Below are positions 1-30,581 of a stretch of 31,172 bases of DNA, piece after piece. A program made the position numbers and the translations under genes. Location of the stretch: the NCBI GenBank assembly GCA_002269645.1, contig NIVC01002787.1, positions 1 to 31,172 on the forward strand, written 5' to 3'. The stretch's first letter is position 1; the number at the start of each line of letters is the position of its first letter. The notes beneath the pieces are model-generated. The model saw nothing but the letters and a program-made list of their open reading frames with translations, did not search any database and was not told the DNA's origin. Origin of the DNA: Macrostomum lignano (taxonomy: Eukaryota).

Positions 1-2372
1 AGCAGGATTTGGCTGTGATGAATTTATGGCCGCGAAATTCGAGAGTGATAATATGCTCAAAGCAGCCCACACTCCCCCGGTGCGTGCGCCCGCATGACAG
101 CAGAGTTGTTGTTTAAGCACATTGACAAGATTGTGCAGTCAGACGCAAGCGTACTGTCGAGCAACTTTTCTATCCGGTTGCTAAAGGCCTGGGTGCCTCG
201 AGGTGGATGTGCTCTCGAGAACAAGCATCTAGAAGAGAGGCACGCTTTTTCAAAGCACTATGTCCGCATCACCAACACGGACAAGAGGTGCCTGCTGCGA
301 GCTCTGGTCGTGGCCTGCGCCTATCTGCAATTTGTGGCCAAGCGCATCACCGAGGATGTGTGGCGCAGGATCAAGGCCAATTCACCCAAGCAGACTAAGC
401 TGGTGACTGAGCTGCAAGTCGAAGCAGGCCTCTACACGGTAAGTTGTGCACTAATTTTCCACTGTATCAGGGAATACCAAAAGATTTATTTTCTGATAAG
501 AATTTCGTTTCTGGTTTCTAGTATTTTCATGGATTACTAAAAGAATTTTTACGATAAGGAATACTAAAAGCTATATTTTCTGATAAGAATTTTTACGATA
601 AGGAATACTAAAAGAAATATTTTGCCTCCACACAGACTCATCAAATCGTCTCGCAGGCCGGTCCTTTTGGGGTGGATGTTCTGCCCGAGGCGATACGGGC
701 CCTGAACCGTCTGCATCCAGGCCACGATTTTGGTGTACGAGTGTACAGGGCAGAGGAGGCCAACACGTGCATATTCAACCTGCCTGGCACCGAGATTCTG
801 CACCTGCACCTGGTCGAGCAGCACTTTAATGTGGTCACCAAGCTGCCTGCGTTTTTCGGCTCCGATCACTACTGCGCCAAGTGCGAGATGGCCTTCGATT
901 GCAATTATGAGAAGCACAAGTGCGCTGATGCCTGCAGTACATGCAAGACTCCGGGCTCCAACTGCAAAGCCAACCGTGCATATGTAAGATGCCATGATTG
1001 CGGGCTAAATTGCTATAATGCTCAGTGCCTAGAGAATCACAAGCGCAAGAATAAGGCGGGCAGATCGCGCTGTGATTCAGTCCACGTTTGCGGCACGTGT
1101 GGCTATCTAGAAGAACTGAAAGTAGGCCAGCCCCCGAGCATCAGTGTGGTTACGCCAAGTGTCCAGTCTGCAAGCAGTACGACGAAACGGCCACCCACGA
1201 GTGCTTTGTCACCCCGCCCAAAGCCAAAGAGTCTAGCGCCCCGTACGTTTACTATGATTTCGAGACGTACGTGGACCAAGCAGCACCGGGTACACTTGGT
1301 TACGGCTGCCACCTCCTGCGAGGCGTGTCCCAAACTCTTCCCCAGGCCCCGCTGCAGCGTGTGCGGGGGGTTGCACAGCTCAGCCAATTGCATTGCGGGA
1401 CGCAATCTGGCGCTGGATTTTACGAGCTGTGTCTCCCACAATGACTGTGCCTGTGGGATGCGAGAGTTTGTATCCGTTGGACTGCACTCTATCGATGCCT
1501 TTTACTGCTGGCTGACTAGCGTGTTCAAGCAGGGGGCAATTGCAATTGCGCACAATGGCTCTGCGTATGACGCATTCCTCCTGCTCGGCGCCCTACTCAA
1601 CGGACTGGCCAAGAAGAAGCCGCAGGTGATCTTCCAGAACAGCCGCCTAATGTACATGAAGTGCGACAAGATCACGTTCAAGGACAGCCTCAACTTTATC
1701 CCTATTGGTCTGGCGCAATTCCCAAAGGCGCTTGGTTTGGGCACCCAACTGACCAAAGGAGATTTCCCGCACGTGTTCAATCAGCCACAAAACTGGGGGT
1801 ACGTAGGTCCCTACTGCTCAATTGATATGTACGGCGGGAAGAAGAATAAGCAGCACGACTCCATCGCTGACTGGCTGGCCAAGCAGGAGGGACAGGTGTT
1901 TAATTTCAATAAGGAGTACCTGGACTATTGCCTGCAGGACACGTTAATTTTGCGGGAAGGCTGTCTAAAGTACACCCGCCTGATTAAGGACATTTGCGGA
2001 CTGGACGCATTTGTCCAATCCAACACCATTGCGGGCTTGGCTATGGCTGTTTTCACCACCAAGTTTATGGAGCCCAACACTCTTGGGGTGATTTCCCGCC
2101 GGTCCGATGTACAGTCGCACAAGGCGCGCTGCTGGCTGGCACATTTGAATGCAACCGAGTTTGGCGGCCGGTTGCGGACAGCCGATTCTGGCGGCGAGGC
2201 TTTCGCCATGGGCCGTAAGGTGGATGGCTTTGACCCGGAGACCAGGACAGTGCTGCAGTTTCATGGCTGCTTCTTCCATGGCTGTCCCAAGTGCTTCCCC
2301 AACGGCGACGTGCTGCACCCGCTCAAGAACCAGCCAATGCGGGCGATTTATGAGGAGACTGAGCGCTATTAG
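1..2372 (+). pseudogene. Protein-primed DNA polymerase B (pPolB), plus-strand copy: end of exon 3 (1-438), intron, exon 4 (about 657-2367); 3'-truncated
   Basis: Cys/His-rich Zn-finger-like clusters; Exo I YVYYDFETY (in the 1088..1444 frame); Exo II IAHNGSAYD; FKDSLNF; KGDFPH.FN; Exo III YCLQDT; TIAGLAM; Vsr-like nuclease insert VDGFD..QFHGCFFHGCPKCF. Compensating frameshifts at about 1131-1135 and 1277-1280. The ORF stops at the inversion junction before the polymerase motifs (no YxDTDS seen). Confidence 0.88.
439..656 (+). other. Spliceosomal intron 3 of pPolB
   Basis: Donor ACG|GTAAGT at 439, AT-rich body with internal repeats, acceptor TCGCAG|GCC at 656 (alternative ACACAG|ACT at 635). 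Both acceptors are phase 0 and join AGLYT to the 672..2372 frame. Confidence 0.8.
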
Positions 2373-2384
2373 TGCACAACTTAC

Positions 2385-4223
2385 CGTGTAGAGGCCTGCT
2401 TCGACTTGCAGCTCAGTCACCAGCTTAGTCTGCTTGGGTGAATTGGCCTTGATCCTGCGCCACACATCCTCGGTGATGCGCTTGGCCACAAATTGCAGAT
2501 AGGCGCAGGCCACGACCAGAGCTCGCAGCAGGCACCTCTTGTCCGTGTTGGTGATGCGGACATAGTGCTTTGAAAAAGCGTGCCTCTCTTCTAGATGCTT
2601 GTTCTCGAGAGCACATCCACCTCGAGGCACCCAGGCCTTTAGCAACCGGATAGAAAAGTTGCTCGACAGTACGCTTGCGTCTGACTGCACAATCTTGTCA
2701 ATGTGCTTAAACAACAACTCTGCTGTCATGCGGGCCGCACGCACCGGGGGAGTGTGGGCTGCTTTGAGCATATTATCACTCTCGAATTTCGCGGCCATAA
2801 ATTCATCACCAGCCAAATCCTGCTTGAATACTTCGAGCAAACTGGCAAATGTCTCGCGTAAGTCGCTAGTACCATCCAACTTTACCACATATTCCACACC
2901 CTTGGCCCTAAACTTGGGCAGGTCGCGCTGATTATCCAGCCGGGCCGTAAAACCTGTAGGGGGAATGAAGGGGGAGTGTGAGTCAGCCCGGGTCTGCCTG
3001 GGGAATAGGGGGCTGGATAACTCACCCGGTCCGGTAACAAATTCAGGTTGGGCAGGCGGGACAAACGCGTCTGAAAAAACACAAGGAGATAAAAAACCAG
3101 AAGAATCTGTCAATTCGTGGCACCCCAGGATCAGACTCCAACCGACTCATTGTTCACGCTCCCCCCCCCCTTGCGCTCAGGCCCTCCCACCGACACGCTC
3201 TGCAATTTTTTTAACCCCAGCCGCATCCCGCCTGGCTCTTTGTTAGCGCTCCCCATAACCCCTCGCACGCATGCCCCCTGCCGAGACGCATCTGCAATTT
3301 TTTAACCCTAGCCGCATCCGGCCTGGCTCATTGTTTGCGCTACTCCTCCCGCACAAGCCCTGCTGCTGAAACGCTCTGCAATTTTTTTAACCCTAGCCGC
3401 ATCCTGCCTGGCTCTTTGTTTGCGCTACCCCTCGCAAGCAAGCCCTGCTGCTGAAACGCTCTGCAATTTTTTAACCCTAGCCCGCATCCTGCCTGGTTCT
3501 TTGTTTGCGCACCCTCCCTACTCAAACTCGTAAGCTCCCTGTCGCAGCACTCTGAATTCCCGCATGCTCCTGCAGCTGTCAGAGCGCCCACCATTTTTTA
3601 TCTGGCCTGGCTCATTGTTTGCGCTCACGCATAACCCCTTGCGCTCAGGCCCTCCTGTTGAAATGCTCTGCAATTTTTTTAACCCCAGCCCGCAGCTGTT
3701 ATCCGGCCTGCTCTTTGTTTGCGCCCCCTCTCTACTCAAACTCGCATGCCCTGCTGCTGCACTCTGAATTCCCGCATGCTCCTGCAGCTGTCAGAGCGCC
3801 CACCATTTTTTATCCCGCCTGGCTCATAATCCCTCGCGCGTAGACCCTCCTGCTGAAATTCTCTGCAATTTTTTAACCCTAGCCGCATCCTGCCTGCTCT
3901 TTGTTTGCGCCCCCTCCCTACTCAAACTCGTAAGCTCCCTGTCGCAGCACTCTGAATTCTATAGCCCGCATGCGCCTGAAGCTGTCACAGCGGTAAACCC
4001 CTCAACTCTTTGTTAGCCCCCGCCTGTCTAGTCTGCTCTTATCAACTCTCTATCGCGCCTCTCTTGCTCCTGCCCCTGCCAATTCATAGAAGCTCCCTGC
4101 TGCAGCAACTCAAAACCCGTCTAGACTGATATACAACCGGATAGAAATTAATTAAAACTTACCATAAAGACGTTGCCTCTTGTCAGCTGGGAAAGTAGTC
4201 GATGCTGCGCTGCGTTTAGCCAT
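2385..4223 (-). CDS. pPolB 5' exons, inverted copy: exon 1 4223-4163, exon 2 3070-3026, exon 3 2953-2385; truncated within intron 3 at 2368
   Basis: gcaaaATGG start at 4223 (MAKRSAASTTFPADKRQRLY). Donor G|GTAAGT at 4162. Acceptor with long pyrimidine tract TTTTTTCAG| at 3071. Donor G|GTGAGT at 3025. Branch CTGAC, pyrimidine tract and CAG| at 2954. Donor |GTAAGT at 2384. Phases are 1/1/0 and all in frame. The ORF-track start at 3113 is a TTG inside intron 1. Confidence 0.78.
3150..3990. repeat. Imperfect tandem repeat array (about 90-bp core, with interspersed larger variants) inside pPolB intron 1
   Basis: About six copies of CTCTGCAATTTTTTAACCC(T/C)AGCCGCATCC..GCCTG(G)CTC(T/A)TTGTTTGCGC, plus three copies of GCACTCTGAATTC-containing blocks. 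Confidence 0.85.
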
Positions 4224-4439
4224 TTTGCATACAGAGAGAAGGATTATCTCTCTACCCCTGTTCTAGGGGTCCGAATATATACTAAAAACCTGCTTAGCTC
4301 GTCTATTATTGGCCAAATCACCAAAAAACCAACCAGAATCACTCAAAATCACCCCAAAATCACACCCTCCCACCCTCCATCTGGGGGTATATAAAGCGCT
4401 GCGCGGCTGTCGGAGAGCTCTCTGCTGCTGCTGCTAATC
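4224..4439. promoter_or_regulatory. Bidirectional promoter between pPolB (-) and the PC4-like gene (+)
   Basis: 216-bp gap between divergent ATGs. TATATA at 4276-4281 (about 53 nt upstream of the pPolB ATG), TATATAAA at 4388-4395, central ATTGGCCAA CCAAT-like element. Confidence 0.6.
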
Positions 4440-4986
4440 ATGTCTTCTTCTATCGCTCTATACGAAAACTTTGTGGCGCGGAAGCCCACATTTGAAACGG
4501 AGCATGACTTAATTGAAATCCGTCGGCTCTACACCGACGAAGCTGGAGTGTGGAAGGACGGCTTCCCAGCAATCTATTTAAGCGAGGTCGAGTGGAAGAA
4601 GCTCGAAGCTGCACGCCCTGACCTGGAGGCTGCGGCACGTCTTCACGTGGACAAGAGTCGTGTTGGGCAGCTTCAAGGCGGCAGAAGCTTCACAGGGGAG
4701 GATTCGTTTGCGGCGCAATTGGCTTAATCGGGATCCAAAGTTCAATTGGCGCTACACAATTGAATTCACGCCGGAACTGTGGCGCCGGATGTTTGCCGCC
4801 CGTTTGGGCAAGCTCTTCAAACCCAAGGCCCCGCCGCCAGCCAAGCGCGCCAGGACCGATACCTCTCTGGTAGCCAGGACTGAGGAGGAGGAAGAAAATC
4901 TCCAGGATGTTCTCCAGGTTGTGGGTCTCAAACCCTACCAATTCCCGCCCTGGGAAAATCTGTTTGACGAGAGTCAGCGCTGGTAG
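4440..4986 (+). CDS. Tandem PC4-like domain protein (putative ssDNA-binding), split by one frameshift at about 4635-4645
   Basis: DLIEIRRLYTDEAGVWKDGFPAIYLSEVEWKKL and RVVLGSFK..GRIRLRRNWLNRD..IEFTPELWRRM both fit the PC4/Sub1 pattern (xIDIRxY..G..KPG.KGISL..EQW..L) by eye. Basic PAKRAR and acidic EEEEE tail. Confidence 0.6.
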
Positions 4987-4992
4987 TTCCCT

Positions 4993-5028
4993 ATTGGCTC
5001 GCGCCACCCGGCGGGGCTCCCTATATAA
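4993..5028 (+). promoter_or_regulatory. Putative promoter of ORF3
   Basis: Inverted CCAAT (ATTGG, 4993), GC box GGCGGGG (5010), TATATAA (5022-5028), upstream of the ATG at 5099. Confidence 0.45.
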
Positions 5029-5098
5029 CTAATCTAGCCAGCCTCTAGAGAGCCAAACCCTAATCCTAGCCCTGATACTATAGTCTGCTGATTCCAAC

Positions 5099-5782
5099 AT
5101 GTCCCGCCGCCGAGCTCTATCCACCCTCTGGGATAAAAACCGCCCATCTGAAGAATTAGCCTCCCTCGACGGTGAAATACCCGAACATATAATCCCCATA
5201 GGCATAGAAAACGGCGGACTTGACTATCCTGAAAATTGGGGTGCTGATATAGCCTTATCTTGGGCTTTGTGGGCTATTACCTACGATAGCGACCCGGGAT
5301 CTGAGATTTTCGACATCCCGTGGGGTAATAGCTACGATAGCGACACCGGGTCTGAGATTTTCGACCTCCCACCGCTGACTATCGGAGGGGGTGTGAACGC
5401 CGCCGCTGCCGACTCTGGTGCCTCTGCCGCTGCCGCCCCTGCCACCTCTGCCGCCGATGCCGACTCTGCCGCTGCCGACTCTGGTGTCTCAGCCTCTGCC
5501 GCCCCTGCTGCCGCTGCCGACTCTGGTGCGGCCTCCCCCGGTGTCTCTGCCTCTGCCGCCCCTGCTGCCGACTCTGGTGTCTCTGCCTCTGCCGCCACTG
5601 CTGCCGCTGCCGACTCTGGTGCTGCCTCCCCCGGTGTCTCTGCCTCTGCCGCCCCCACCTATGGTAAGATATTACACTGTATACACAATTCGTCTTATCA
5701 TATACAAAGCATATATTCTTTCTACATTAATTGTTTTAATTTCCCCATTGCAGTCGGCCGACTACTGATTCGAGACCCTTGA
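5099..5782 (+). CDS. Hypothetical Maverick accessory protein with duplicated YDSD(P/T)GSEIFD motif and Ala/Asp/Ser-rich repeats
   Basis: ATG with an upstream TATA. Possible in-frame 90-nt intron 5664-5753 (G|GTAAGA ... TTGCAG|). No recognisable family. Confidence 0.5.
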   Translation: MSRRRALSTLWDKNRPSEELASLDGEIPEHIIPIGIENGGLDYPENWGADIALSWALWAITYDSDPGSEIFDIPWGNSYDSDTGSEIFDLPPLTIGGGVNAAAADSGASAAAAPATSAADADSAAADSGVSASAAPAAAADSGAASPGVSASAAPAADSGVSASAATAAAADSGAASPGVSASAAPTYGKILHCIHNSSYHIQSIYSFYINCFNFPIAVGRLLIRDP

Positions 5783-5981
5783 GGAGGAGGCGGCATGAAA
5801 CAACACTGAGGAGCGGCTGGAGGTTTACTGGGGTTTGCGGTTTTTTCTCCCTGTACGTGATTTTCCCTGTCTGCGCGGCACTTGAGATAATAAAACCTAT
5901 TTGGAAGCTCCCCTGGGGAGAATTCTCTTTGTATGCGGTCTGCTACCTCCACTGTGCATTGGGGCGGTCTCTGTTACTCCT

Positions 5982-6081
5982 CTCTGCCCGCACTGTACAT
6001 TGGGATCCCCCGGCCCTGGGGAGGAATTGAATTTCTCTATGTTACTCTGCCCGCACTGTACATTGGGATCCCCGGCCCTGG
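5982..6081. repeat. 37-bp direct duplication (5982-6018 and 6045-6081)
   Basis: CTCTGCCCGCACTGTACATTGGGATCCCCGGCCCTGG occurs twice. Confidence 0.9.
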
Positions 6082-6599
6082 CTCTGGGGGCGTGTCTCGA
6101 ATATCCTGGGCTGGATATTTTACTTTGCACCTACATTATATGCTTAATTTTGCATGCATATGTTGTATTATACTTAACTTCCAGTGTGTGTATTTTATCC
6201 TATGCATTGAAATTTGTGCCTGCGGGTTAATATGCAAAATGTTTAAAATCTGCCTACATTATATGCTATGTAATTTTCCTGTATTATACTCAATTTGCAC
6301 CTACATTTTGTGTATGTATGCACCTGCATTATACTGTGTGTATTTCCGCCTATGTTTTATTAGCGCCTACTACACTAATAATGCGATATGTACCTGCTTT
6401 GTCTATTTCTGTCAATATAATATGCACCTACATGGTGTGTTTTTTGCTGCTCATATGCATCAATATGTACATTTTAATATGCATTATGCACCATTATTTA
6501 CACCTACCAATATGTTTTGCCTACTATTTTTATGTAAATATACACAATTTCACCTACTATAAGTAGTTTTCACTAGCCTAATATCATTGACTACATATC

Positions 6600-7204
6600 T
6601 GTGTATGCATACATATCGGGAGAGTGTACTGGGGAGAGTGTACTGAGGAGAGTGTACACTCGGGGTGCCTGCGGCATGGGAGAGTGTACACTCGGATGCC
6701 TGCGGTTTGGGAGAGTGTACACTCGAGTGCCTGCGGTTTGGGAGAGTGGAGCGCCTGCGGCATGGGCGCCTGCTGCTCTGGAGGGAGGGCATACATATCG
6801 GGGTACATATCGGGAGTGCGCATACATGTCGGGAGGGTACCCCTGCGGCATGGGCGCCTGCGGCATACATATCGGGAGGGTCGCCTGCGGCTCGGGAGGG
6901 TGCACATATCGGGAGGGTGCAGTGCGCCTGCGGCATGGGCGCCTGATTGGCGCTTGGCGCCACGCGCCTGCGGCGCGCGCGCCAATGAGAAGCGAGGTGG
7001 GTTGACACCCACCCCACCTCCAAAAACGCCCGGATCTGCCGGCCCTTAGTAGTCCTGTAGAATACCCTACCATTTGGTTCGGTATCTTTTTGGACAAGTT
7101 GCTTGGTTGATCGAAATTGAGATCTTTTCTTCTTTTGAATTCTTTGTGGGTACTGTGCCGTGTAGTTGAAATTCCTGTAGAATACTCTACCATTTGGTCC
7201 GGTA
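6600..7204. repeat. Maverick subterminal repeat region
   Basis: Multiple GAGAGTGTAC, GCCTGCGGCATGGG and CATATCGGGA motifs. 31-bp direct repeats at 7054-7084 and 7174-7204. Imperfect GC-rich palindrome at 6946-6986. Confidence 0.8.
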
Positions 7205-7325
7205 CCTTACTACTTGATTTTTAATAGAAAAATAAGGTATGTGCGTAATAAAATTTCTGACGGGTACCTTATTACGTGTTTTGCAATTGAAAAATGTGGT
7301 ATGGACGTAATTTTCTATTACTACT

Positions 7326-7735
7326 AATCTCATCTCTCCTTTCTCCCCTCTTCTTACACCCCTCTCTTATCTCTATCTCTTCTCTTCTCACTCCTCTCCC
7401 CCTCTAATCTCCTCTCTTCTCTATCCTTTCTACTCTCTCCTCTCTAATCTCTCCTCTCCTCTTGACCCGCTGTCATCTTCTTTCTGCTCTCTCATCTCTA
7501 CTCTCTTCTCACTCTTCTTTACTCTCCTCTCATCGATCCTCTGTCTCATCTCTCCCCTCTTCTCACATTTACTCTTTCCTCTCCCTCCTTTCTCCCCTCC
7601 TCTCGCTTCTTCCTCCCTTCTTCTCTGCTCTCTCCTCACCACTTGTCTCTCCTCTTATCTTCCATGTTTTCTCTTATCCCCCTCTCGCCTCTCCTCTCTT
7701 CTAATAGTCTATTCCTTCTCCTTTCCACTCTCATC
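7326..7735. repeat. CT-rich low-complexity tract
   Basis: Almost purely pyrimidine strand. The ORFs over it are compositional. Confidence 0.9.
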
Positions 7736-8354
7736 TGGCCCGCACATAAGCTGGATTCTTTATCTGGCTTTTGAAGTAAAAGTCTGCCGATCCCTGCTTC
7801 GAAAGGCAGTTTGTGGGACGTACTACTCTCATCGTTGTTCTCATGCTTTGATCACGTCATCTTTCTTGCCAATTTGCAGCCCTGAAAGGAATTTTTATAT
7901 TTTCAGCTCCACTGCAGTCTGCATCAGTCTAACAACCAAGGAAATACGCATTTCTTAGGAGGCCATTTAAAATTTACACACTACCTTTAAAAGAAACCTA
8001 AAATTTCCATGGGTGTGCCTAATTTAGTAGGGTTGTATTGCATTGTGCATTGCATCGCATCGCCTTTTCATAAACCTTTCGCTTTTACAAATCGCTTTTC
8101 GCTTTCGCTTTTTTGCTGGATTCCCTCGATTTGCCAATTGCCATCCACTGTTAAACTGCTGCAGAGTTTGCCAATACAGAGGAGGGGAGGGCAGTGGTTA
8201 GAATTTCTCACTAATTAAACTGTTATGGCTAAACGTAGCCTCTCCACTCTCGGGGTGCGAGGAGGCTATAAAAAAGTTATTCCAAAACACTGTACATTTG
8301 CTATGTACATTCAGTCCTATCGCCTGATCCTTCGTCTGGCTCTGGGGGAATGAG

Positions 8355-8980: not shown

Positions 8981-9744
8981 GAGAAGAGATAGAAAGCAAT
9001 ACTATTCAGTTGTGATTAGGCTACAATATTGAATTTAGACGGTACTAGTGTAGTGAGTCGCTAGTTTAGTTAGGCGCCGCACTAGTCAGCTGTTGCCCTC
9101 GCCCTCGCCCCGGGCTTCTGTCTGCCGCTGGGCAGTTGCCTGTCCCCCCCCCGCCTGTCCTCTGGCCTGTCCTCTGCCCGTTTGTCTGTCTGTCTGTTTG
9201 TCCTCGTTTGCCCCCTTTTGTCTCGTTTTCCCTTTTTGCAGTGCCAAGACAGCTTGGTCTGGCCTGCCTCTGTTTCGTTCTTGGGCATCTCCAAATTTGG
9301 AATGCCTTTCTGTTTTCCGGTCCCACGGTCACGAGTGCCTTCTGACTCATGTGAGTCAGTCACATGACAAGGCCTTCTTCCTTCTTTAGTCCAAAGTGCA
9401 ATGATTTCATCATTGTACGCTGGGCTCGTGTTTATGGGGAGATCACGTGCGCCCAGACCCCCCCTTGCCTCCTCTGAGGCAGGGCCCGCTTGTTTGTTGC
9501 TAAAAATAGCAACAGAGTCACTGGGCCTTTTCATATTGCTTGTCCTTGTTCCAGAACCAGAACCAATTTGTGAAGTATAACTTTTTGTCTCCATAACAAG
9601 TAGTATGAAGACGCACACGTCTTTTTGCCACCAGTGAACGGGCTTCTTTTTAGACGTGGGTCTTCATACTACTTGATAAACCTAGTTTTGTACCGATGAA
9701 AAAGAACTTTGAGAAGCTCAATAAAAATGTAAATCTCTACTTCT

Positions 9745-9890
9745 CCCATTTTCTCCCTTTGTCTGTTCTGTTTCTCTCCACTCTAATCTCTCTCTAGTCT
9801 CCCCTCTCCTCTCCTTTCGCTTCTAGCTCTCGTTTTATCTCTTATCTTCTCTTTAGTCTTATCTCTTCTCTATTCTCTTTCTCTCTCATC
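9745..9890. repeat. CT-rich low-complexity tract
   Basis: Pyrimidine-rich, followed by a motif shared with the end of the 7326-7735 tract. Confidence 0.8.
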
Positions 9891-11661
9891 TGACCCGCAG
9901 CCATGAGCTGGAATCGAGTCTTCTATAATAGGCTTTGGAAGGCCTCGATATAAAAAAATTTCTAATGACTCCAGAGCGTAGCAGGGTTATATTTTGCAAA
10001 GAAAGCTATAAATACAGTCATTCCAAAACACTGTACATAGCTACTTCATAAGGGACATAAGCCTTTTAGTCTGGGGAGGATTGTACACGTAGTGACTTGG
10101 AGCTTGCCCCGCCAAACTTTGTACTGGGCTTGCAATTCAAATGTGCAGTTAAAGAGCTAAATTTAATACGAAATTCTAATCACGTGCCACCCGTTTATCG
10201 ATCTAATTTTCCTTGGTCTGTGCGCGAGTCAAATGAAGCTCTATTACACGCCCTCCAAACCAAGCCGCCAAGCCCTCACGCCACAGCCCCCCACTTAGAA
10301 GGGACGGGAGTGTGTGTACATTCTACGATTTTTCCTTCCTTTCCTTTCCTTTCTAACCAGCTTAACTCAGCCCAACGCCAAAGACATGCAACGTGCAAGC
10401 AATCGAATGCAAATGCAAATTTTGCAAAGCGGTATGCAGCTTAATCGGATGAATTTTGGTGCAAAAAAGGCGTTTTTTACCTGAAGAAAACATCGAATGG
10501 TTATGAAACTGAATAAATTTGTTACATTAACTGTCTGGAACACTGTGCATTGGTTTCAGTGCAAAATTCCTACCATTTCCCGGTTATTTAGCCCCGGAAG
10601 GAACAAAAGTGTCACAAATCAAGTTTTCAGTTTTTTATCGATAATTTTTTACCTAATGAACCGAATCTCTAGAAATTGCACACAAATGTGCCTCATTATG
10701 TGGGAAATCAGATTTCAGAAAAATATTGTCGTCCTATTGCGTTATTTTGCCTGATTTCAAGCAAAATATTAAAAAATCACTACTCTGATCGATTTCCAAT
10801 CACTTTTGACACATGAGCACTTGTTGCAGACACTCAAAAACTTGGTAAATTTTAGCCAGACATTAGTACAACTCGTTGCAGTATCCGCATTTGATCTAGC
10901 ATTCTTTTAAAATTTTAATCACCCATTTTTCTGACACCCAATCAGCCAAAAATCACAAATTATCGATTTCTGATCGATTTTTCAATCCGAAAGCAGCGAA
11001 AGCAGACGGCAGCAATTTACACCAATATAGTACAGCAACTACGCTATAGAAATTCGATATTGGCTTATTCGCACCATGTTCTCAAAATTATAATGAGCAA
11101 TAATGCGAAAGTCATGTGATTTTTTGAAAAATCGATTTTTGTCAATTTTCTCAGCACTGCAGAAGCGTAGGAAAACAAAACTTTAGACACTTGTAGATAT
11201 TTGCATTGCGCATCCAAATGCACTGCTTTGAAGCCGAAACTCAAAAAGCTTCGTAGGAAAAAGTGGGGAAATAATAATATGAGGGTCATTTTTTACCCAA
11301 AAACCCACCAAAACTACATAAAGATACCAAAATAAATCAAAGCGCCATATACCATTTTGTAGGAAATTTAGTTTTACAACTTTGATCCTCAGATGTCGAA
11401 GCTGTATCTCGTAAGGTGTACCAGAATTTTGAGATCTCCTAGAAGCACTTTTGAAAAAATCGTCTTTCCAGTTATTTTACGGCTCATTTAAAAAATCTCT
11501 GCATTTAAAAGTACATTCATTCGATAGATCTAAAAGTTTTCTATCGATCGACACCTCACTCAACTCAATCGGTGCAGTGGTTGCAAAACAGGAGCATTTT
11601 TTGGCGGAAAAACGTGAAATTTCAAAATGCATTAGAGTCTAACTTATTTACTGGTAAATAC

Positions 11662-14164: not shown

Positions 14165-14280
14165 TTATCTAAATCATCTAAATCTCTAAATCCTCTAATC
14201 TTCTAATCTTCTTTCTTCTATCTTCTAATCTTCTAATCTCTAAATCTCTAAATCTCTAAATCTCTAAATCTCTAAATCAT
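14165..14280. repeat. (AATCTCTA)n / (AATCTTCT)n microsatellite
   Basis: Direct reading. It overlaps the stop codon of the FkbM gene. Confidence 0.85.
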
Positions 14281-15393
14281 CTGAATCTCTTTCTTAACTC
14301 GTGGCAAAAAGTCGTTTCTAATCCATATTCCGTCCCATTCACCAAATGTGGTGATTTTCTGCACTTGGAAGGTCCTCATGGACAGCAGAGAGAAGTTCCT
14401 GGAAGTCATGAAGTGAGTCACAAAGTTGTAATATTTCGACGCTTGCGGCGGCTCCGTGAGCTTCCGCCAGAACTCCATCTGCAGCGCCATGATGTTGAGC
14501 TCTCTAAACAGCTTTTCGCCAGTCTTCATGAACAGGTGCTCACCGGACTCGATATCCATCTTGATGATCACATTCTTGGTGCTGATGTGTTCTCGAAGCT
14601 CGTCCGCCCTGACCGTCATCACGGGAATAGTGTCCTCAATTGCTGTCGTAACCTTCTGTCTCCAGCCAGCCGCTGCACCCGAGCCGCTTCCGGCGTGGCA
14701 ACCAAAATCGTCAGCGTTCCAAGTGATTCGCTTGACCGCCACGTCGTCGCTGATGAAGCCCCAGAAGAGCTTCAGTTTGTCATCAAGCAAATCCAGCCTC
14801 TTCGCTGACATTTGCAACCTGGCCAATGCACGAATGTTTGCATCGATGGCCACTACGGGATACCCGAGCTCTCTGGCCTGCAGGCTGTAGATGCCGACGT
14901 TGCTGCCGACGTCAAGGAACGTTACCGAGTCTGTCGGAAACTGCTTTAACAGGTTGAGCATCGTCCGAATTTCGCCAGTTTCCCAGGCGTTCTTTTTTAG
15001 CATCTCCCCAGAAATGAAGTCCTCCGCGCCGAAGGTAAATATCGGCATTCGGCCGCCGCCCATCGCTCGGGTCACATTGGCCACAGGAGACCCTTGTCTG
15101 ACAATGGTGTACATCTGCTGCGGTAAGTTCCTGTTCAGCTCGCACAGGAGAAACTTGCCCCTGACTAAATGATAGGCCGGCGTCTCCTGACACAGCCGGT
15201 GCCGCAGGCTGGGGTTCGTGAAGTCGACGCTGCGGAGCTCGTTGTAGGCGGGACAGTTTTTGATCAACTGCACATCGCTCAGAACTGGCAGTGTGTCAGA
15301 ATCAGCGAAATTTCTGCGCCGAACGAGGTATGCTACAGTCAGTAAGACAGCTGCTGCGCCAGCTAGCGATATTAAGTTATTCTTTGTTCTCAT
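14272..15393 (-). CDS. FkbM-family (Methyltransf_21) SAM-dependent methyltransferase with N-terminal signal anchor, about 373 aa
   Basis: SAM-binding motif TFLDVGSNVGIYSL, V.AIDAN, IIKMDIESGE; hydrophobic LISLAGAAAVLLTVAYLV. Uninterrupted ORF. The likely start is MRTKNN at 15393; the ORF track extends to 15510. Confidence 0.85.
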   Translation of the reverse strand: MRTKNNLISLAGAAAVLLTVAYLVRRRNFADSDTLPVLSDVQLIKNCPAYNELRSVDFTNPSLRHRLCQETPAYHLVRGKFLLCELNRNLPQQMYTIVRQGSPVANVTRAMGGGRMPIFTFGAEDFISGEMLKKNAWETGEIRTMLNLLKQFPTDSVTFLDVGSNVGIYSLQARELGYPVVAIDANIRALARLQMSAKRLDLLDDKLKLFWGFISDDVAVKRITWNADDFGCHAGSGSGAAAGWRQKVTTAIEDTIPVMTVRADELREHISTKNVIIKMDIESGEHLFMKTGEKLFRELNIMALQMEFWRKLTEPPQASKYYNFVTHFMTSRNFSLLSMRTFQVQKITTFGEWDGIWIRNDFLPRVKKEIQMI

Positions 15394-16199
15394 CGTTTTT
15401 GCGCGAGCAGAAAGTTTTGAGATTGCAAAAAGCTCACAAGGATTTCTCGGAATGCATAGGAGGCCGTCTGTATCACGAGTTTTTATGCGTGAAAGGCAGA
15501 GTGTAAGCACTGGAATTGTGCTTACATCGAAGCAAACAACGGCCTCCTCTCATCTCGACCGGGGCTATCCAGCCAGACCAGCTCTAAACTAAAAGACAAA
15601 TAACAAAAGCCGAGGTTTGAGGGCCAAGCCAGCAGCCTGCGAACGCGTGACACAGTAGACTCGCAGCAATGCTTTGGGGGTGATATGGTTGCCTAACAAC
15701 AGCACACAGAAAAACTGCTCGAGCGATAACCCTGCCCCGCTCAAACTATGCATTGCTCTGCATTTTGTCAACTAAACCAGTTTGCTTGCTTGACTATAAA
15801 ATACACTGTCTTGAATAATTTGCGGTACAGAGAGGAGTTGGAGATGTGAGCCTCACACTCATAATAGGGCCCTTTGATGCCAGTGAGTTAGAAAGTCTTT
15901 CTGGCTTGTGAGCAGAAGATAGCAGGAAAATAAAACCTGTTAGACACAGAAATTCTTTGAGCACCTCTGCTACGCAGTCCCTCTCATACTGCCTGACTGT
16001 TTGGCTAATAACAAACCAAACTTCTTCAGCCTTCGGAATTGCGCACTGCGCAAAAGCAACGCAAGCTCAGTGATACAATCGTTTCTTAAGGAGAAAAGAG
16101 AGAGACGATAGAGAAAAGAAGACGCCTGGGTTTCTTTAGACGTGGGAATATGAATTTAAAGAGTGAAAAAATGGCTAAATATGAAGAGGGGGGATGGAG

Positions 16200-17730
16200 T
16201 GGCTAAATATGAAGACTGGAAATAGAGTGGCTAAATATGAAGAGTGGGAATAAAGAGGCTAAATATGAAGAGTGGGAATAGAGAGGCTAATTGAAAGAGT
16301 GGGAATGGAGAGGCTAATAGAAAGAGTGGGAATAAAGAGACTATAGAAAAAGTGGGAATGGAGAGGCTAATAGAAAGAGTGAGAATAAAGAGGCTAATGG
16401 GAAAAGTGGGAATGAAGTGGCTAATTGAAAGAGTGGGAATAGAGAGGCTAATTGAAAGAGTGGGAGTAAAGAGGCTAATGGGAGGAGTGAGAATAGAGAG
16501 GCTAATAGAAAGATTGGGAATAGAGTGGCTAATTGAAAGAGTGGGAATAGAGAGGCTAATGGGAAGAGTGGGAATAGAGAGGCTAATAGAAAGAGTGGGA
16601 ATAGAGAGGCTAATTGAAAGAGTGGGAATAGAGAGGCTAATGGGAAGAGTGGGAATAGAGAGGCTAATTGAAAGAGTGGGAATAGAGAGGCTAATGGGAA
16701 GAGTGAGAATAGAGAGGCTAACTAAAATAGTAGGAAAAGAGACTAATAGAAAGAGTGTGAATAGAAAGGCTAATAGAAAGTATGGGAGTACAGAGCTAAT
16801 TGAAAAAGTGGGAATAGAGAGGCTAATTGAAAGAGTGGGAATAGAGAGGCTAATAGAAAGAGTGGGAATAGAGAAGCTAATGGGAAGAGTGGGAATAGAG
16901 AGGCTAATAGAAAGAGTGGGAATAGAGAGGCTAATTGAAAGAGTGGGAATAGAGAGGCTAATGGGAAGAGTGAGAATAGAGAGGCTAACTAAAAGAGTAG
17001 GAATAGAGAGGCGAATTGAAAGAGTGGGAATAAAGAGGCTAATAGAAAGAGTGGGAATAGAGAGGCTAATAGAAAGAGTGGGAATAGAGAGGCTAATAGA
17101 AAGAGTGGGAATAGAGAGGCTAATGGGAAGAGTGGGAATAGAGAGGCTAATAGAAAGAGTGGGAATAGAGAGGCTAATAGAAAGGGTGGGAATAGAGAGG
17201 CTAATTGAAAGAGTGTGAATAGAGAGGCTAATAGAAAGAGTGGGAATAGAGAGGCTAATAGAAAGAGTGGGAATAGAGAGGCTAATGGGAAGAGTGGGAA
17301 TAGAGAGGCTAATAGAAAGAGTGGGAATAGAGAGGCTAATAGAAAGGGTGGGAATAGAGAGGCTAATTGAAAGAGTGTGAATAGAGAGGCTAATAGAAAG
17401 AGTGGGAATAGAGAGGCTAATTGAAATAGTGTGAATAGAGAGGCTCATTGAAATAGTGGGAATAGAGAAGCTAATGGGAAGAGTGGGAATAGAGTGGCTA
17501 ATATAAAGAGTGGGAATAGAGAGGCTAATTGAAAGAGTGGGAATAGAGAGGCTAATTGAAAAAGTGGGAATAAAGAGGCTAATTGAAAGAGTGGGAATAG
17601 AGAGGCTAATAGAAAGAGTGTGAATAGAGAGGCTCATTGAAATAGTGGGAATGGAGTGGCTAATTGAAAGATTGGGAAAAGAGAGGCTAACTGAAAGAGT
17701 AGGAATAGAGATGCTAATGGAAAGAGTGGG
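16200..17730. repeat. 27-bp minisatellite, about 55 copies
   Basis: Consensus GAAAGAGTGGGAATAGAGAGGCTAAT(A/T), degenerate at the left edge. It explains the IERVGIERL and SIPTLSISL pseudo-ORFs. Confidence 0.95.
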
Positions 17731-18705
17731 AATCATCATCTAAATATACTAAATCTCTTCTTCTATCTAAATATACTAAATCTCTAAGCTTTGTATGTTT
17801 GAATGCTTGCTTGTCCATAACGCTCTACAGATTGCAATTCTTGACCAATTTTGATCGCGTTTTCGCCAAAAGATTTCTAATCAGCCTGGGATTGTATGGT
17901 TAAAATTTCTTGTATCTGCTTCAATGCTAAAGGGATTAAATATTCGAAAAACATGTTTTCTGCAAAGGTCAAGCAGCTCTTTCTACTTGAAATGCGCTGT
18001 AAAAATGCTAGAGAAAAAACTGACTGGCTGAATTCTTATTCTGATAAAGATTACATCACAACAAGTTGAAAACACTGTGCCAAGTTGAAAGACAGCAATT
18101 GCGTAACCATATAGCAAACTTTAATTTAGACTGATACTGACTGCCTGCGTATTTAATTATGTCATAGCTGCTTCGTGTGACTTTCACTCGAACAGACTTT
18201 GTGTTAGTATTCGTGTATTCGTGTAGCACTCTAGAGATCTCTCTATAAAAAGATTTGTAATTATCTGGAAAGAAGGCAGCTAAAATTTCTTGTAGCTGCT
18301 TCAATGTTAAAGGTATTAAATATTCGAAAAACGAGTTTTTCTAATGCTTTTATTAGAAGGCCAAGCAAGGTTGAATTCTTGACTGGCTGAATTCCAATTC
18401 TAATTATAATTGCGCCACAACTGCGTACTGCATATTCTCGCTATAAACTGACTCTGAGCTTTTTAGGTGGAGGCAGTGTGCCAAGCATTGCGCAGGCACT
18501 CTGGAGGGAGAGCGAAATCAGCCAGTGCATTTTAAAAGTATTGAAATAAAATAATGCTCAGTGGCTGCGTGTGTACATTCTTCTGACCTTGGCTGAATGG
18601 CTCTGCCGGCACCAAACCTGTGCACACTGAGCAGCCTATCACTGCTATGTATTTGACCGCAATGTCAAAGCATATATGGCTGATTTTTGTGCCCTCCCAT
18701 CAGTA

Positions 18706-18776
18706 GGCGGAATAGCCGCAGTGTAGGCACTAGGATAGGTTTAGGCTAGGCGTAAGGTCCAAGGTTCGAGTCCGCC
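18706..18776 (+). other. tRNA-like Pol III A/B-box cassette in H1 (copy at 23127-23198 in H2; 5'-half copy at 25446-25483 in H3)
   Basis: A-box-like TAGCCGCAGTG and perfect B box GGTTCGAGTCC (18763-18773; 23185-23195). The ends GGCGGA and TCCGCC are complementary. It does not fold as a canonical tRNA by eye. Confidence 0.5.
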
Positions 18777-19904
18777 TCGCCGGCCGATAATTAAAATTAA
18801 ATAAATTAGTTCATTTATACCTAGCGCCTCAATTAATTGAATCATTTTTTATTAATTAGTAAGCCACACTCAATGAATTATATTTGCTATTCAGCACAAT
18901 ATTTTGCTATTCAGCACAAGTTGCTAAACAAATTTGATTTTGTCAATTTGAATTTGATTTGATTTCAGCCAGTGCATTTAAAAATTTGATTTGTAAAAAA
19001 CTGATTCGTGTATTACTGCTTCCGAATTGCAGACGATGCTGCTAAATAGCTAAATAGCTGAAGGTACTGCTAAATGCTGAGCTGCGCAAAAGACTGCCGA
19101 TATGTATCGAAAATTGATTAGTGAGCCCTACTAAATGCTGAGCAAATTTTCAGAATACTGAAAGAATAATTGCTGAGAAGACTCATTCATGCAGACTGCA
19201 AAGGGAAAAATTGAAAAAAACTGCTGAGGTATTCCTCCAGACTTATGAGTGTATAGCAGAGCAAGTTGTTGAGGGGATACGAGTAACTGCGGACTGCTGA
19301 GTGAATTATTGTAGCTTGCCGGTGCTAATGAAAGTTGTAGAGAGTAGTACCTGCAGGCTGCTAAGAGTATGACTGCAGTCTGTTTGCGGGATTAGAAGGG
19401 ATAGCTAATTTCAGGTTGTTGTGGGGATAACTGCCGATTTCTGGGGGGGGGGTTAACTTCAAAGTGCGAAGTTACTAAACTTCTAGAATAGTATAAGGCT
19501 TTTAGTAGAAGGTCGGCAGTTCGAGTCTACATTGAAGCAGCGAATTTATCGTTGTGACAATAATCATTGTTTCCTATGGGAATTCATGCAAATTTTTAAC
19601 ATTTTATTTTATATATACTTTCGCTGGGGCTACGCTAAGCTTCAAGAGCAGTGCTTATCTGCTGTAAGTGCTAATTTGCAAAGGGTATTTCTAATCTGGG
19701 TGAGCAGCGCTAATCGGGGAGAGCAGTGCTAATCTGTCGACGCATATAATAAAATAATAAATATGTAAGGAGATTAAATTTACCCTGCAAGTTGCAAAAA
19801 CATTTTAAATGGTTTCGATTATGCAGAACCAATATGGCCATATGCAAAGATTAGTGGCCATCTGCTCACTGATTGTGCAAAACAGTGCTGGTGAACCACT
19901 GCTA

Positions 19905-20025
19905 AACTGCTGGCGAAGCATTGCTAAACTGCATTGCTAAACTGCTGGTGAAGCATTGCTAAACTGCTGGTGAAGCATTGCTAAACTGCATTGCTAAACT
20001 GCTGGTGAACCATTGCTAAACTGCA
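19905..20025. repeat. Short tandem repeat of about 22 bp (CTGCTGGTGAAGCATTGCTAAA) with shorter variants
   Basis: Direct reading. Confidence 0.8.
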
Positions 20026-20929
20026 GAAAGCTATAGTGAAATATTGTATTTTTTAATATTAACTTCTGTTAAAGAGAAGAAAACGCAAAGGCAAGAAAAA
20101 ACGAACAAGAATCATCTTGTCAATCATAAAAAAGCACCCTGTCGAAAGTAAAAGTCTCATTGGGAATTGCTAAGACTGTTAAGACTGCTAAGACTATTGC
20201 TATGAGCATAATGCTGGTATGGCAAATTGCTGTGATATATCAATACTCATGGAAGGATTTATAAGATATCAAGACAAAGGGGAATTGCTATAATTATGTC
20301 ATTCTTGGGAGAATTGCTCTGAATTCAAGGTTCATTTGTGAAATTGCTGAAATTAATTGTTGAAATGCAAGTGCCAAGATATCAAATGGTTAGTCACTCA
20401 ATTTTCAGGCTCATGGGGAAATTGCTAACATTTCCAAAGCTCATTGGGGAATTGCTGAAATTCGACTACAGGTTAAGGGTTATGGTTTTGGTTAAATTAT
20501 AGAGCGATCGTCGTGACAACCATCAATGATCCATCGAGGAATTGCTAAGATTAAAGGCTCTTGGGGCGAATTACTTAAATGCTTTGGCTCTACGGGGAAT
20601 TGCTGATAGGTCAAGGCTTTCGGTGAAATTCAGATTACAAACCTTATGAGGAAGTTACTTTAATGCTGAGGCTCAAGGCTCATAGTGGAAATTGCTAACA
20701 TGCCAAGACTCACTTATGAGTAGGTTTGGGGGCTTAGGGTCAGTTTTGGTTCAATCATAGATTAACCGCTGTCAACAATCAATTAAAGACTTGCTAAGAT
20801 ATCAAAGCTCATGGGGGAATAGCTGAGTTATCAAGGCTTATAAGGGGATTGCTGAATTCTTGGGAGAGGGGAGTTGGGTTGTTGGGATGTCAAGGCTAAT
20901 TACTGCGCTGGGAGAATTGCTGCAATGTC

Positions 20930-22080
20930 GAGGCTTAATGGGGGAATTGCTGAGATGTCAAGTCCTACTAGGAATTGCTGAGATGTCAAGGCTTTCTGGG
21001 AATTGCTAAAATGTCAAGTCCTACTGGGAATTGCTAAGATTTCTATGCTTACTGAGATGTCAAGGCTTACTGGGGGAATTGCTGAGATGTCAAGGCTTAC
21101 TGGGGGAATTGCTGAGATCTCAGAGCTTACTGGGGGAATTGCTGAGATGTCAAGGCTTACTGAGGGAATTGCTGAGATGTCAAGGCTTACTGGGGGAATT
21201 GCTGAGATGTCAAGGCTTACTGGGGGAATTGCTGAGATCTCAAAACTTACTGGGATAATTTCTGAGATTTCAATGCTTACTGGGAAATGCTGAGATTTCA
21301 AGGCTTACTGGGGGAATTGCTGAGATGTCAAGGCTTACTGGGGGAATTGCTGAGATGTCAAGGCTCATGGACGATGGCTGAATTTTTTGGGGGGTGTTAG
21401 GTTGTTGGGCGATTGTCAGATAGTCAGGTAGTACGGCTCAAGTAGCTCATGTAATTCAGATAATGTAATTCAGATAAATTTTAACCATCAACCAAGGACT
21501 TGCCATCAACTAAAGACTAGCTAAGATGGGAGTTGCTAAGATATCAAAGCTCATGGATGGAATCGCTGAGTTGACAAGGCTCATGAAGAAATTGCTGAGA
21601 TATCAAGGCTCATAAGGGGATTGCTGAATTCTTGGGGGAGGGGAGTTGGGTTGTTGGGATGTCAAGGCTTACTCGGCTGAGAGAACTGCGTAGATGTCAA
21701 GGCTCGAGTTTAATTTCTGCGATGTCGATGCTTAATGGGGGAACTGCTGAGATGTCAAGGCTTTCTGGGGGAATTGATGAATTGTCAAGTCTTACTGGGA
21801 ATTGCTAAGATGTGAAGGCTTTCTGGGGGAATGCTGAGATTTCAAGGCTTACTGGGGGAATGCTGAGATATCAATGCTTACTGGGGGAATTGCTGAGATC
21901 TCAAGGCTTCTCAGCAATTCTTGCACGTATTAGCAATTGTTAGCCAAGTATTCTTAGCAATTCTTAGCAATTCTTGTCAAGGCTTACTGGTGGAATTGCT
22001 GAGATGTAAAGGCTTACTGGGAGAATTGCTGATATGTCAAGGCTTACTGGGGGGGAGGGGAATTGCTAAGATGCCAAGGC
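20930..22080. repeat. 30-bp minisatellite (GGGGGAATTGCTGAGATGTCAAGGCTTACT) in two blocks, about 20930-21360 and 21740-22080
   Basis: Direct reading. It explains the EMSRLTGGIA pseudo-ORFs. The blocks lie within a duplication of about 700 bp. Confidence 0.9.
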
Positions 22081-22597
22081 TCATGGACGATGGCTGAATT
22101 GTTGGGGGATGTTAGGTTGTTAGGCGATTGTCAGATAGTCAGGTAGTACAGCTGAAGTACCTCATGTAATTCAGATAATGAAATTGTACACACAAGTGAT
22201 GCTGATTTCTGCTAATAGGAAATACCAGCGCATTTATTAAAGGTTTCATTCTTTGATTCAGGCTAATTAAGAGAGAGGGTCTAAGGCCGTCAATGATTTG
22301 CATATTTGCAGCGGATCAGAATATGCCCCGGCCAGCGACGATATGCACTAAGAGTTTGTGCTTGAAAGGATAAGCACTATTTGTTGATTGAAAAAGGGTT
22401 TTGTGCTGATGAAGGAAACTTTTTTGGCTGATGAAAGTTCTGATTCATGGCAATTTATTTTTGCCAAAATGAGAAAAGGTAATTTTTGATTAATGGAAAT
22501 CAACATTTTGGATAATTATAGTAAGGTTACTCTTGCGTCAAAATAAAAACCAATTGGTGTCATTTTAGGGCTCCCCAAAGGGGGGCTAAATGGCTAG

Positions 22598-24932: not shown

Positions 24933-25719
24933 TCAATATACTAAATCTCTAAGGTTTGACCGGTATTCCAGTCCACAGCCTGAATGCCTGAACCGTTTTT
25001 TTTCAAACTTGCTTTATTTAATTGCAAATTCTTGTGAGATTGTGTGGGTGTAATTGCATTGAAAAATTCGAATGAGAAGTTGGTTAAATATTCGAAAAAC
25101 GAGTTTTTTTAATGCTTTCAATGGGAGGCTAGTAAAGGTCAAAATCTCACTAACTGAATTTTAATTCCAATTAAGATTGCGCCACAACTTTTCTCTGTTC
25201 ACTGTGTACGCCTCAATACTGGCTGCAATAAGGGAGAGGAAAATAATGCTCAGTGGCTGCGTGTGTACATTCTGACCCTGGCTGACTGGCGGACTGCATA
25301 GCCTATTGCTATTTATAGATTTCACTCAACTGTGCATTGGCTCTGCCTGCATACAACCTGTGCACACTGAGCAGCCTATCACTGCTATGTATTTGACTGC
25401 AGTGCCGAAGCATATATGGCTGATTTTTGCGCCCTCCGATCAGTAGGCGGAATAGCCGCAGTGTAGGCACTAGGACTAGGTTTTGAGGCGATAATAGTAG
25501 TCACCTTTTAGCAGTTTGGGAGTGGTGCTAATCTGGGGAGCGGTGCTAATCTAAGGGAGTGGGGCTAATATAAAGGAGTGGGGGGCTAATCTGGGGGATT
25601 GGGGCTAATCTGGAGGAAGTAGCGGTGCCAACTTTTGCGGAGTCGTGCAAATCTGGAGAAGTAGTGCTAATCTGGGAAGGTGAAACTATCTGGGAAGCGG
25701 CGGTAATCTGTGGAGCGGT

Positions 25720-26035
25720 GCTAATCTAGGCTGAGTGCTAATCTGGGCTGAGTGCTAATCTGGGCTGAGTGCTAATTTAGGCTGAGTGCTAATCTAGGCT
25801 GAGTGCTAATCTGGGCTGAGTGCTAATCTAGGCAGAGTGCTAATCTAGGCTGAGTGCTAATCTGGGCTGAGTGCTAATCTAGGCAGAGTGCTAATCTAGG
25901 CTGAGTGCTAATCTTGGCTGAGTGCTAATCTGGGCTGAGTGCTAATCTAGGCTGAGTGCTAATCTAGGCTGAGTGCTAATCTGGGCTGAGTGCTAATCTG
26001 GGCTGAGTGCTAATCTAGGCTGAGTGCTAATCTGG
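25720..26035. repeat. 17-bp tandem repeat (GCTAATCT(A/G)GGCTGAGT), about 18 copies, in H3
   Basis: Direct count. Confidence 0.9.
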
Positions 26036-26259
26036 GCGCAGTGCTAATCTGGACGTAGTGCTAATCTGGGGGAAGTGGGGCTAATCTGGCGGTGTGCGGC
26101 TAATATGGAGGGAGTAGTGCTAATCTTGGACGTAGTGCTAATCTGGGGGAAGTGGGGCTAATCTGGGGGTGTAGGGCTAATGTGGGAGAATAGTGCTAAT
26201 CTGGTGAGGATTTGAAAATAACAAATAATCATAAAAAAACTATAAATGAATTGACATTG

Positions 26260-30498: not shown

Positions 30499-30581
30499 GG
30501 ATCGAAGCAAATTGAGAAAACCGGATCGGTTGCATTACAGTGAATAATTCCGGATAACTGACAATGCAACTTTTTATTGAC

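Follow-up and report, generated by a model that had tools for sequence, protein, structure and literature searches.

The DNA analysed here is a 31,172-nucleotide stretch of the Macrostomum lignano genome (GenBank assembly GCA_002269645.1, contig NIVC01002787.1, positions 1 to 31,172 of the forward strand), referred to below as the window. Its first 7325 bases belong to an element of the Maverick (Polinton) class, in which the polymerase gene pPolB, read on the plus strand, breaks off at position 2367 and is joined to an inverted copy of the element's own left arm. The window thus opens with part of one arm, continues with a loop, and returns through a second, complete arm to an element end that borders host DNA. 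The features are listed below with their strand; exon joins were taken from predicted M. lignano gene models.

1 to 455 (plus): the stretch of the second, mirrored arm that lies in the window; pPolB exon 3 (3' portion) up to 438, then the first 17 nt of intron 3, with the donor site at 439
456 to 2367 (plus): unique loop, 1912 bp; remainder of intron 3 to 635, then pPolB exon 4 at 636 to 2367
2367/2368 (plus): fold-back joint; 0 nt of microhomology found, in-frame stop at 2370 to 2372
2368 to 7325 (minus): complete Maverick left arm, 4958 bp, terminus read inward
2368 to 2384 (minus): stub of intron 3; donor retained, acceptor gone
2385 to 2953 (minus): pPolB exon 3, from tblastn of M. lignano models and splice sites
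2954 to 3025 (minus): pPolB intron 2, 72 nt, with GT-AG ends; the exon 2/3 join is present in 13 of 43 gene models
3026 to 3070 (minus): pPolB exon 2, from the frame map and splice sites
3071 to 4162 (minus): pPolB intron 1, 1092 nt, with 85-bp and 212-bp tandem repeats at 3195 to 3959; the exon 1/2 join is present in model P0032
4163 to 4223 (minus): pPolB exon 1 with the start codon, from the splice-site map
4224 to 4439 (no strand): divergent promoter region between pPolB (minus) and the accessory genes (plus); TATA-like words near 4280 and 4390, identified by eye
4440 to 4986 (plus): PC4-like accessory gene, with a frameshift near 4655 relative to other copies
5099 to 5798 (plus): second accessory gene, low-complexity and spliced, from open reading frames; no family match
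6600 to 7319 (minus): subterminal repeat region with 14-bp and 31-bp tandem units, dispersed 9- to 12-mers and a duplicate at 120-bp spacing
7320 to 7325 (minus): element end, 5'-(AGT)2, seen as (ACT)2 on the plus strand, bordering the host repeat
7326 to 7331 (plus): candidate 6-bp target-site duplication AATCTC, on a single flank; the word is also a unit of the host CT-rich repeat

The mirror between the two arms is nearly exact. In a local alignment, the reverse complement of 2368-2824 and the sequence at 1-455 agree in 455 of 457 columns without a single substitution, the only differences being two single-base gaps, both of which fall within the first 88 nt of the left copy. This pair is the sole minus-strand match among the 287 rows of a self-BLASTN of the window (E = 0.0), and the match is beyond chance. 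The mirror is cut by the window start on one side and has a sharp edge at 455/2368 on the other, where intron 3 contributes its first 17 nt, on the minus strand, to the right of the joint. An earlier reading of this DNA from sequence alone had described the near-perfect mirroring of 1-455, the break of pPolB at 2367 followed by intron 3 on the opposite strand, and a run back through the pPolB 5' exons, the promoter and the accessory genes to an AGTAGT terminus at 7325. All of this agrees with our alignment, with the position of the frame's end, and with the map of exons, introns and end motif. The same holds for the proposed geometry of about 11.8 kb, with arms of about 4.96 kb around a 1.9-kb loop: an arm at 2368-7325 of 4958 bp and a loop at 456-2367 of 1912 bp predict a whole of 11,828 bp.

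The assignment of the element to the Mavericks draws on several lines of evidence. The plus-strand frame at 612-2372 matches PF03175 (E 9.5e-15, profile positions 10-195), and the translated stretch 1425-2366 retrieves M. lignano pPolB models with up to 99% identity over the full query, matches in other animals staying below 40%. Two such searches were made, one for proteins of length 551-2000 (120 of 133 matches listed) and one for length 172-550 (18 matches), in a database clustered at 90%, which can hide copies. A predicted structure of the relative P0001 (mean pLDDT 80), compared over residues 313-935, has phi29 DNA polymerase as its best match (Foldseek E 1.6e-9; Z 16.7, root-mean-square deviation 3.5, 360 residues aligned); a search of PDB sequences with P0015 returned no match. 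The element ends in 5'-(AGT)2, the commonest Maverick end motif in a survey that gives the set as 5'-(AGT)2 // (ACT)2-3' or (AG)3 (PMC8097293). On its plus strand the window holds 12 copies of the (ACT)2 hexamer. The Maverick identity proposed in the sequence-only reading is therefore supported by polymerase family, fold and end motif alike, and M. lignano holds a young, intron-bearing Maverick family whichever reading of the joint is correct.

The break removes the functional centre of the polymerase. Exon 4, whose join to exon 3 is present in 27 of 43 gene models (intron 3 being 439-635 in the window), encodes a zinc-finger-like region and the exonuclease domain and then enters the insert that precedes the palm. 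It carries a compensating pair of frameshifts near 1135 and 1277, placed by a frame map against P0001, P0002, P0021 and P0067, which may be real. The break corresponds to residue 702 of P0001, past the exonuclease motifs and ahead of the conserved polymerase motifs, which begin at about residue 759; every polymerase-core motif lies beyond it, and the polymerase core is lost. No Pfam match to an integrase, capsid protein, packaging ATPase or protease was found in the seven open reading frames scanned from 1-7325, a segment taken up by the pPolB pieces, the two accessory genes and repeats, and the only rve matches in the scanned open reading frames of the window, at 28961-30495, belong to a Gypsy element. 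The loss of the polymerase core proposed in the sequence-only reading is supported; the element is Maverick-derived and, with no polymerase core, integrase or capsid gene found, is not an autonomous one.

We then asked where the two arms came from. Among the matches listed, M. lignano has at least two pPolB families: the first comprises 37 models that are nearly identical, and its sister shares about 68% identity with it. For a comparison of haplotypes the six sister-family models were dropped, and the 116 mirrored residues were compared with the 20 of 37 models that cover them. Over these residues the arms are identical to each other, and the nearest of the 20 covering models is five residues away; among the covering models themselves the median pairwise distance is eight residues, and 5 of 190 pairs are identical. 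Since the haplotype shared by the arms is found in none of the 20 covering models, one arm was probably copied from the other, and this is the most likely origin of the pair as judged from sequence. The absence of substitutions and the common haplotype, at least five residues from its nearest relative, thus support the claim that both arms derive from one copy of the element, although two neighbouring sister copies could also give this pattern, since identical ones exist. The pPolB copies of M. lignano also resemble mosaics of a few haplotypes, which could reflect recombination or mixed assembly.

The same models bear on whether helpers for such an element exist. At least one polymerase-core motif from beyond the break is kept in 43 of 43 family models among the matches listed, so intact polymerases probably exist as helpers. 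In 16 long pPolB gene models the extra domains are host ADAM and zinc-finger exons. In P0011, P0012 and P0014 the Maverick pPolB is joined to exons of a host ADAM protease and of C2H2 zinc fingers, which suggests insertions in host genes. Another model, P0067, consists of a PC4-like exon, pPolB and the last accessory exon, all on one strand, and suggests a Maverick nested in inverted orientation in the left arm of another, either in the genome or in its assembly. Mavericks are not mentioned in the available text of the M. lignano literature searched.

The joint itself was examined on both sides. On the arm side, the reverse complement of 456 onward mismatches at its very first base. On the exon 4 side, the codon for the next residue in P0001, P0002 and P0004, the three near-identical models that cover the break, cannot begin with bases 2367-2368 in any of the three; the residue after the break differs in three models of the 68%-identical sister family, and the other 37 models skip the region. 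The overlap at the joint is therefore 0 nt, provided that this copy carried no private change at that base, and not the 2-3 nt that had been proposed. No word longer than 4 nt is common to 2330-2367 and to 440-500 read as its reverse complement, and the 4-nt word lies off the joint; a random blunt join is expected to show no overlap in 56% of cases. Because element sequence is matched to the last base on both sides, there is no room for an adapter remnant. The palindromic hexamers 2362-2367 and 2372-2377 flank the joint, 4 nt apart; they differ and are not mutually complementary, and with a regional rate of palindromic hexamers of 1.7% the pair is possibly there by chance.

Several ways of making such a joint can be set aside. 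A zero-loop hairpin at the palindromic hexamer 2362-2367 is ruled out by the restart of copying 1.9 kb away, and a simple inversion would have left 1-455 unduplicated. As for polymerase-made joints, phi29 polymerase produced an inverted join with deletion in 406 of 475 chimeras, and 93.5% of its short-range inverted chimeras had at least 2 nt of complementarity (PMC1855051). With 0 nt at the joint and the shared 4-nt word away from it, a primed template switch, whether in the worm or in an amplification tube, is counted out as the preferred mechanism; the joint instead favours end-joining, a homology-free jump or a gap at the level of the read. Of the template switch put forward in the sequence-only reading, the primed form is thus weakened, and a switch without homology is still compatible with the data.

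Our leading interpretation, which we hold tentatively and with somewhat less than even confidence, is that the locus is a real Maverick derivative with two left ends, its arms of about 4.96 kb enclosing a 1.91-kb loop and its joint formed by blunt joining or a homology-free switch. The parent would have been an active M. lignano Maverick whose DNA was being replicated extrachromosomally, through protein-primed strand displacement. From one such genome, two left-end pieces, the first broken in intron 3 and the other in exon 4, would have been joined tail to tail without homology, either by host end-joining or by a polymerase jump. If both ends are true termini, an intact family member could supply polymerase and integrase in trans, and the molecule would be copyable and integrable by such a relative; it would then have inserted into the CT-rich host repeat. 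Seen directly are the complete arm, the joint, the loss of the polymerase core and the single haplotype of both arms. That the locus is all of this at once, namely an integrated copy-back Maverick with two left ends, terminal inverted repeats (TIRs) of about 5 kb, an extrachromosomal protein-primed origin, integration by a helper and perhaps the role of a 'Maverick killer', we consider doubtful.

If the joint is real, it could also have consequences for expression. After integration, a transcript from the promoter in the mirror arm would run through exon 3 and the loop and back through exon 3 in antisense, with no AATAAA or ATTAAA on the plus strand ahead of 4151 on the path from that upstream promoter. 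In a computed fold of the RNA of 1-2824, 455 nt pair arm to arm, and a real joint could give hairpin RNA directed against the family. The locus is thus predicted to yield a long hairpin RNA together with a protein ending ahead of the palm, by which it may damp its own family. The truncated pPolB frame meets a stop one codon past the joint, and by the domain order given in PMC11071308 its product would keep the predicted terminal-protein, protease-like and exonuclease parts; conserved Cys/His columns are present in the retained N-terminal part. In M. lignano, the Piwi-interacting RNA (piRNA) pathway is reported to silence transposons (PMC4604429).

Support for a two-left-end derivative comes from the substitution-free arms with their common haplotype, from the clean end with the commonest Maverick motif, from the phi29-like fold of the family polymerase, given the inverted joins that phi29 polymerase makes, from the potential helpers, from the precedents of truncated EMALEs and Mu killer described below, and from a joint with a 1.9-kb spacer and no room for an adapter remnant. 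A number of observations weigh against it. Of the predicted left, or second, arm of 4958 bp, just 457 bp (9%) fall within the window, and the second terminus and the partner target-site duplication fall outside it, so that neither is visible. The predicted 5-kb TIRs exceed the published ranges consulted, which are 100-1500 bp (PMC10748475) or 46-1447 bp (PMC8097293) for Mavericks and 0.2-2.3 kb for EMALEs (PMC8547959). A joint with 0 nt of microhomology is rare (6.5%) among short-range inversions made by a polymerase (PMC1855051). A minus-strand transcript started at the in-window promoter would run into ATTAAA at 1899 and 825 and into AATAAA at 485, and these poly(A)-like words may end it before the second arm, although even if ended early it would cover exon 4 in antisense. 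The joint shows no sign of recurring, since the break is the end of none of the 43 models, the test being a weak one given length-bound searches, the matches listed and clustering at 90%; and helper integrase or capsid genes were not found in the 16 long family gene models.

Further points against a real derivative also speak for a technical origin, in which the tip of the contig comes from a long read that is chimeric or folded back, or from a misjoin made by the assembler in a multi-copy repeat, with both sides polished by reads from the real arm and from other family copies. We regard this as unlikely, if a serious contender. The window begins inside the mirror, as a contig tip would; both gaps between the arms lie within the first 88 nt, which has a chance of 0.037 if gaps are uniform; exon 4 has its pair of frameshifts near 1135 and 1277; and by a hand tally frameshift-type errors run at 1.8/kb in 1-2367 against 0.6/kb elsewhere, an excess that lacks significance (p 0.11). 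Noise in the consensus is also seen in other places, since the Gypsy element has frame breaks despite long terminal repeats (LTRs) identical at 220 of 221 columns, and dozens of near-identical family copies exist. Palindromic reads make up 0.5% of reads without amplification and 11.8-45.8% after it (PMC6218980), virophage copies often terminate contigs for assembly reasons (PMC8547959), and mosaic sequences are possible in assemblies of polyploid genomes (PMC10733133). Set against this, frame errors also occur far from the window start, in the PC4-like gene and the young Gypsy element, and the joint is base-perfect on both sides. A palindrome left by a missed adapter has next to no spacer and frequently retains some adapter sequence where the read turns, unlike the 1.9-kb spacer without remnant seen here. 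The missing microhomology likewise fits poorly with inversions formed during amplification, given their usual complementarity of at least 2 nt.

A real joint need not imply a mobile unit with two left ends, which is one of several pictures that give the same window. Four scenarios were considered jointly, and together they are rather unlikely to account for the locus: an inverted duplication of an integrated copy in place, by a chromosomal fold-back or in the manner of Mu killer; a double switch, back to the forward strand upstream, so that the element is full-length but inverted in its interior; a deletion that joined two sister copies lying nested or in inverted orientation; and a contig walking into a fold-back copy elsewhere. 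A blunt joint is compatible with host end-joining after a break, P0067 points to a nested inverted copy elsewhere in the genome or assembly, and identical sister copies do exist (the 5 of 190 model pairs identical over exon 3). In Caenorhabditis elegans, Polinton copies drive inversions, and most of the remnants there stem from the end that carries pPolB (PMC11414722); the chromosomes of M. lignano have undergone heavy rearrangement (PMC10733133). The arm haplotype, shared with none of the 20 covering models, disfavours two independent insertions, however, and a second joint was not seen within the 455 bp available. A last alternative, that the parent family naturally has TIRs of at least 5 kb including the pPolB 5' exons and that this copy is a plain internal deletion, we consider highly improbable. 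Non-autonomous DNA transposons usually arise by internal deletion (PMC3014272), which yields blunt joints, but reported TIRs reach no more than 1.5 kb in Mavericks and 2.3 kb in EMALEs, and a parent with 5-kb TIRs should leave many stand-alone models of exons 1-3, for which no direct search was made.

Compared with known systems, the element shares with Mavericks and Polintons a PF03175-type pPolB with a phi29-like fold, the (AGT)2 end, a multi-copy family and a position of pPolB near one end. It differs in lacking the polymerase core, integrase, capsid, ATPase and protease genes, in its predicted TIRs of about 5 kb against 0.05-1.5 kb, and in the three GT-AG spliceosomal introns of its pPolB, whereas intact vertebrate Mavericks are intronless (PMC8097293). 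The fold-back architecture itself is already known from maize Mu killer, in which both TIRs come from one end, two partial transposase copies are inverted, and the family is silenced (PMC3440606). Found in both is the inverted duplication of the 5' part of the main gene at the joint, with loss of the centre and the other end; predicted here as well are termini that both derive from one end and a source of hairpin or antisense RNA. Mu killer, however, derives from a plant cut-and-paste transposon, has mudrA arms of about 1.3 kb and has been shown to silence, whereas the locus described here would have a protein-primed parent and arms of about 5 kb, and is known from the DNA of one end alone. 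Long palindromes, that of Mu killer among them, can resist PCR (PMC3440606).

Other parallels come from virus-like replicons. Among EMALE virophages, 3 of 33 complete ones are truncated yet have regenerated TIRs (PMC8547959); these are integrated virus-like elements of the same broad class, likewise shortened and TIR-flanked, but their host is a protist, their TIRs do not exceed 2.3 kb, and the gene content and origin of the TIRs are not stated in the text of that report. Copy-back genomes, described mainly for negative-strand RNA viruses (PMC13506859), have a terminus and its reverse complement around a loop, a geometry that the present case would share if it has the predicted second terminus, as it would the predicted dependence on a helper; viral ones are not integrated, and the stem predicted here is longer than the loop. 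Protein-primed linear replicons also form palindromic, helper-dependent derivatives, but these are free replicons and not integrated ones. Such palindromic derivatives are known for the yeast pGKL plasmids and defective adenovirus genomes, and the kalilo linear plasmid reportedly has a hairpin deletion derivative. Amplification chimeras made by phi29 polymerase resemble the locus in their inverted join, an intervening deletion of less than 10 kb and a related strand-displacing polymerase, and differ from it at the joint, where 0 nt stand against the complementarity seen in most of them (PMC1855051); a missed-adapter read differs by the 1912-bp spacer and by element sequence reaching the joint from both sides. 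The available text of three further reports (PMC3014272, 10.64898/2026.07.28.741278 and 10.1101/2022.07.12.499685) describes fragments, short terminal palindromes and a circular form, and no gene-containing fold-back. No two-left-end Maverick was found in the accessible text of the literature searched, most subscription papers, Repbase and the founding papers of 2006-2007 being outside the scope of that search.

In the remaining parts of the arm, both accessory genes point outward. The divergent order of pPolB and the accessory genes is visible as antisense read-through in models P0007, P0021 and P0025. The PC4-like gene falls with the Atlas PC4 clusters (score 0.89, 184/256 features), and its single-ORF (open reading frame) copy P0139 gives a Pfam PC4 match with E 0.041, below the cut-off; a single-strand DNA-binding protein is a probable product, which we offer as a lead. 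The second half of this gene had no Atlas match, and a PHROGs search with P0139 and P0140 had none. The second accessory gene is shorter than its relatives P0143 and P0144, being without their long C-terminal region and carrying stops in the last exon. The subterminal repeats probably belong to the parent's ordinary TIR. An Rfam scan gave 0 matches, and a bacterial promoter scan, which is irrelevant to eukaryotic DNA, found nothing.

Beyond the element end lies host DNA. The Maverick adjoins a CT-rich host repeat, with AATCTC present in three copies within 7326-7740; this dispersed repeat (7326-7760) recurs 2.4 kb away at 9730-9910 and holds the candidate target-site word several times. Further along, an unbroken 425-codon frame on the minus strand at 14272-15549 has an N-terminal hydrophobic stretch and a weak match to an FkbM-type methyltransferase (E 4e-4, below the cut-off), and 16150-17740 is occupied by a tandem array in which a purine-rich unit of 27 bp is repeated about 50 times, with a strong skew between the strands. 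A host unit at 18300-26260 and 30812-31014 is duplicated at 2.3-kb spacing and carries 17-bp and 30-bp arrays. One of its copies houses the young Ty3/Gypsy retrotransposon at 26260-30812, which has 221-bp LTRs that differ by one gap and are free of substitutions. It is flanked by a 5-bp target-site duplication, and its coding sequence is interrupted by a single premature stop and changes frame twice.

To conclude, we describe a fold-back joint within a Maverick of M. lignano whose meaning depends on how it arose. Were the joint an artefact, it would have no biological value. If only the joint is real, the locus would be a candidate natural source of hairpin RNA like Mu killer, testable with M. 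lignano small-RNA data, in an organism that offers transgenesis, RNA interference and a working piRNA pathway. The extrachromosomal replication of Mavericks is a model. A vertebrate survey states that no Maverick particles have been seen (PMC8097293). If a copy with two left ends were flanked by a matching target-site duplication, it would be direct evidence from the genome for the existence of such molecules and a fossil of the intermediate expected under models of Maverick replication. One end sequence would then suffice to serve at both sides of an integration, defective genomes would be mobilised in trans, and the locus itself might be a 'Maverick killer', setting a hairpin RNA and a polymerase-dead protein against the active family.

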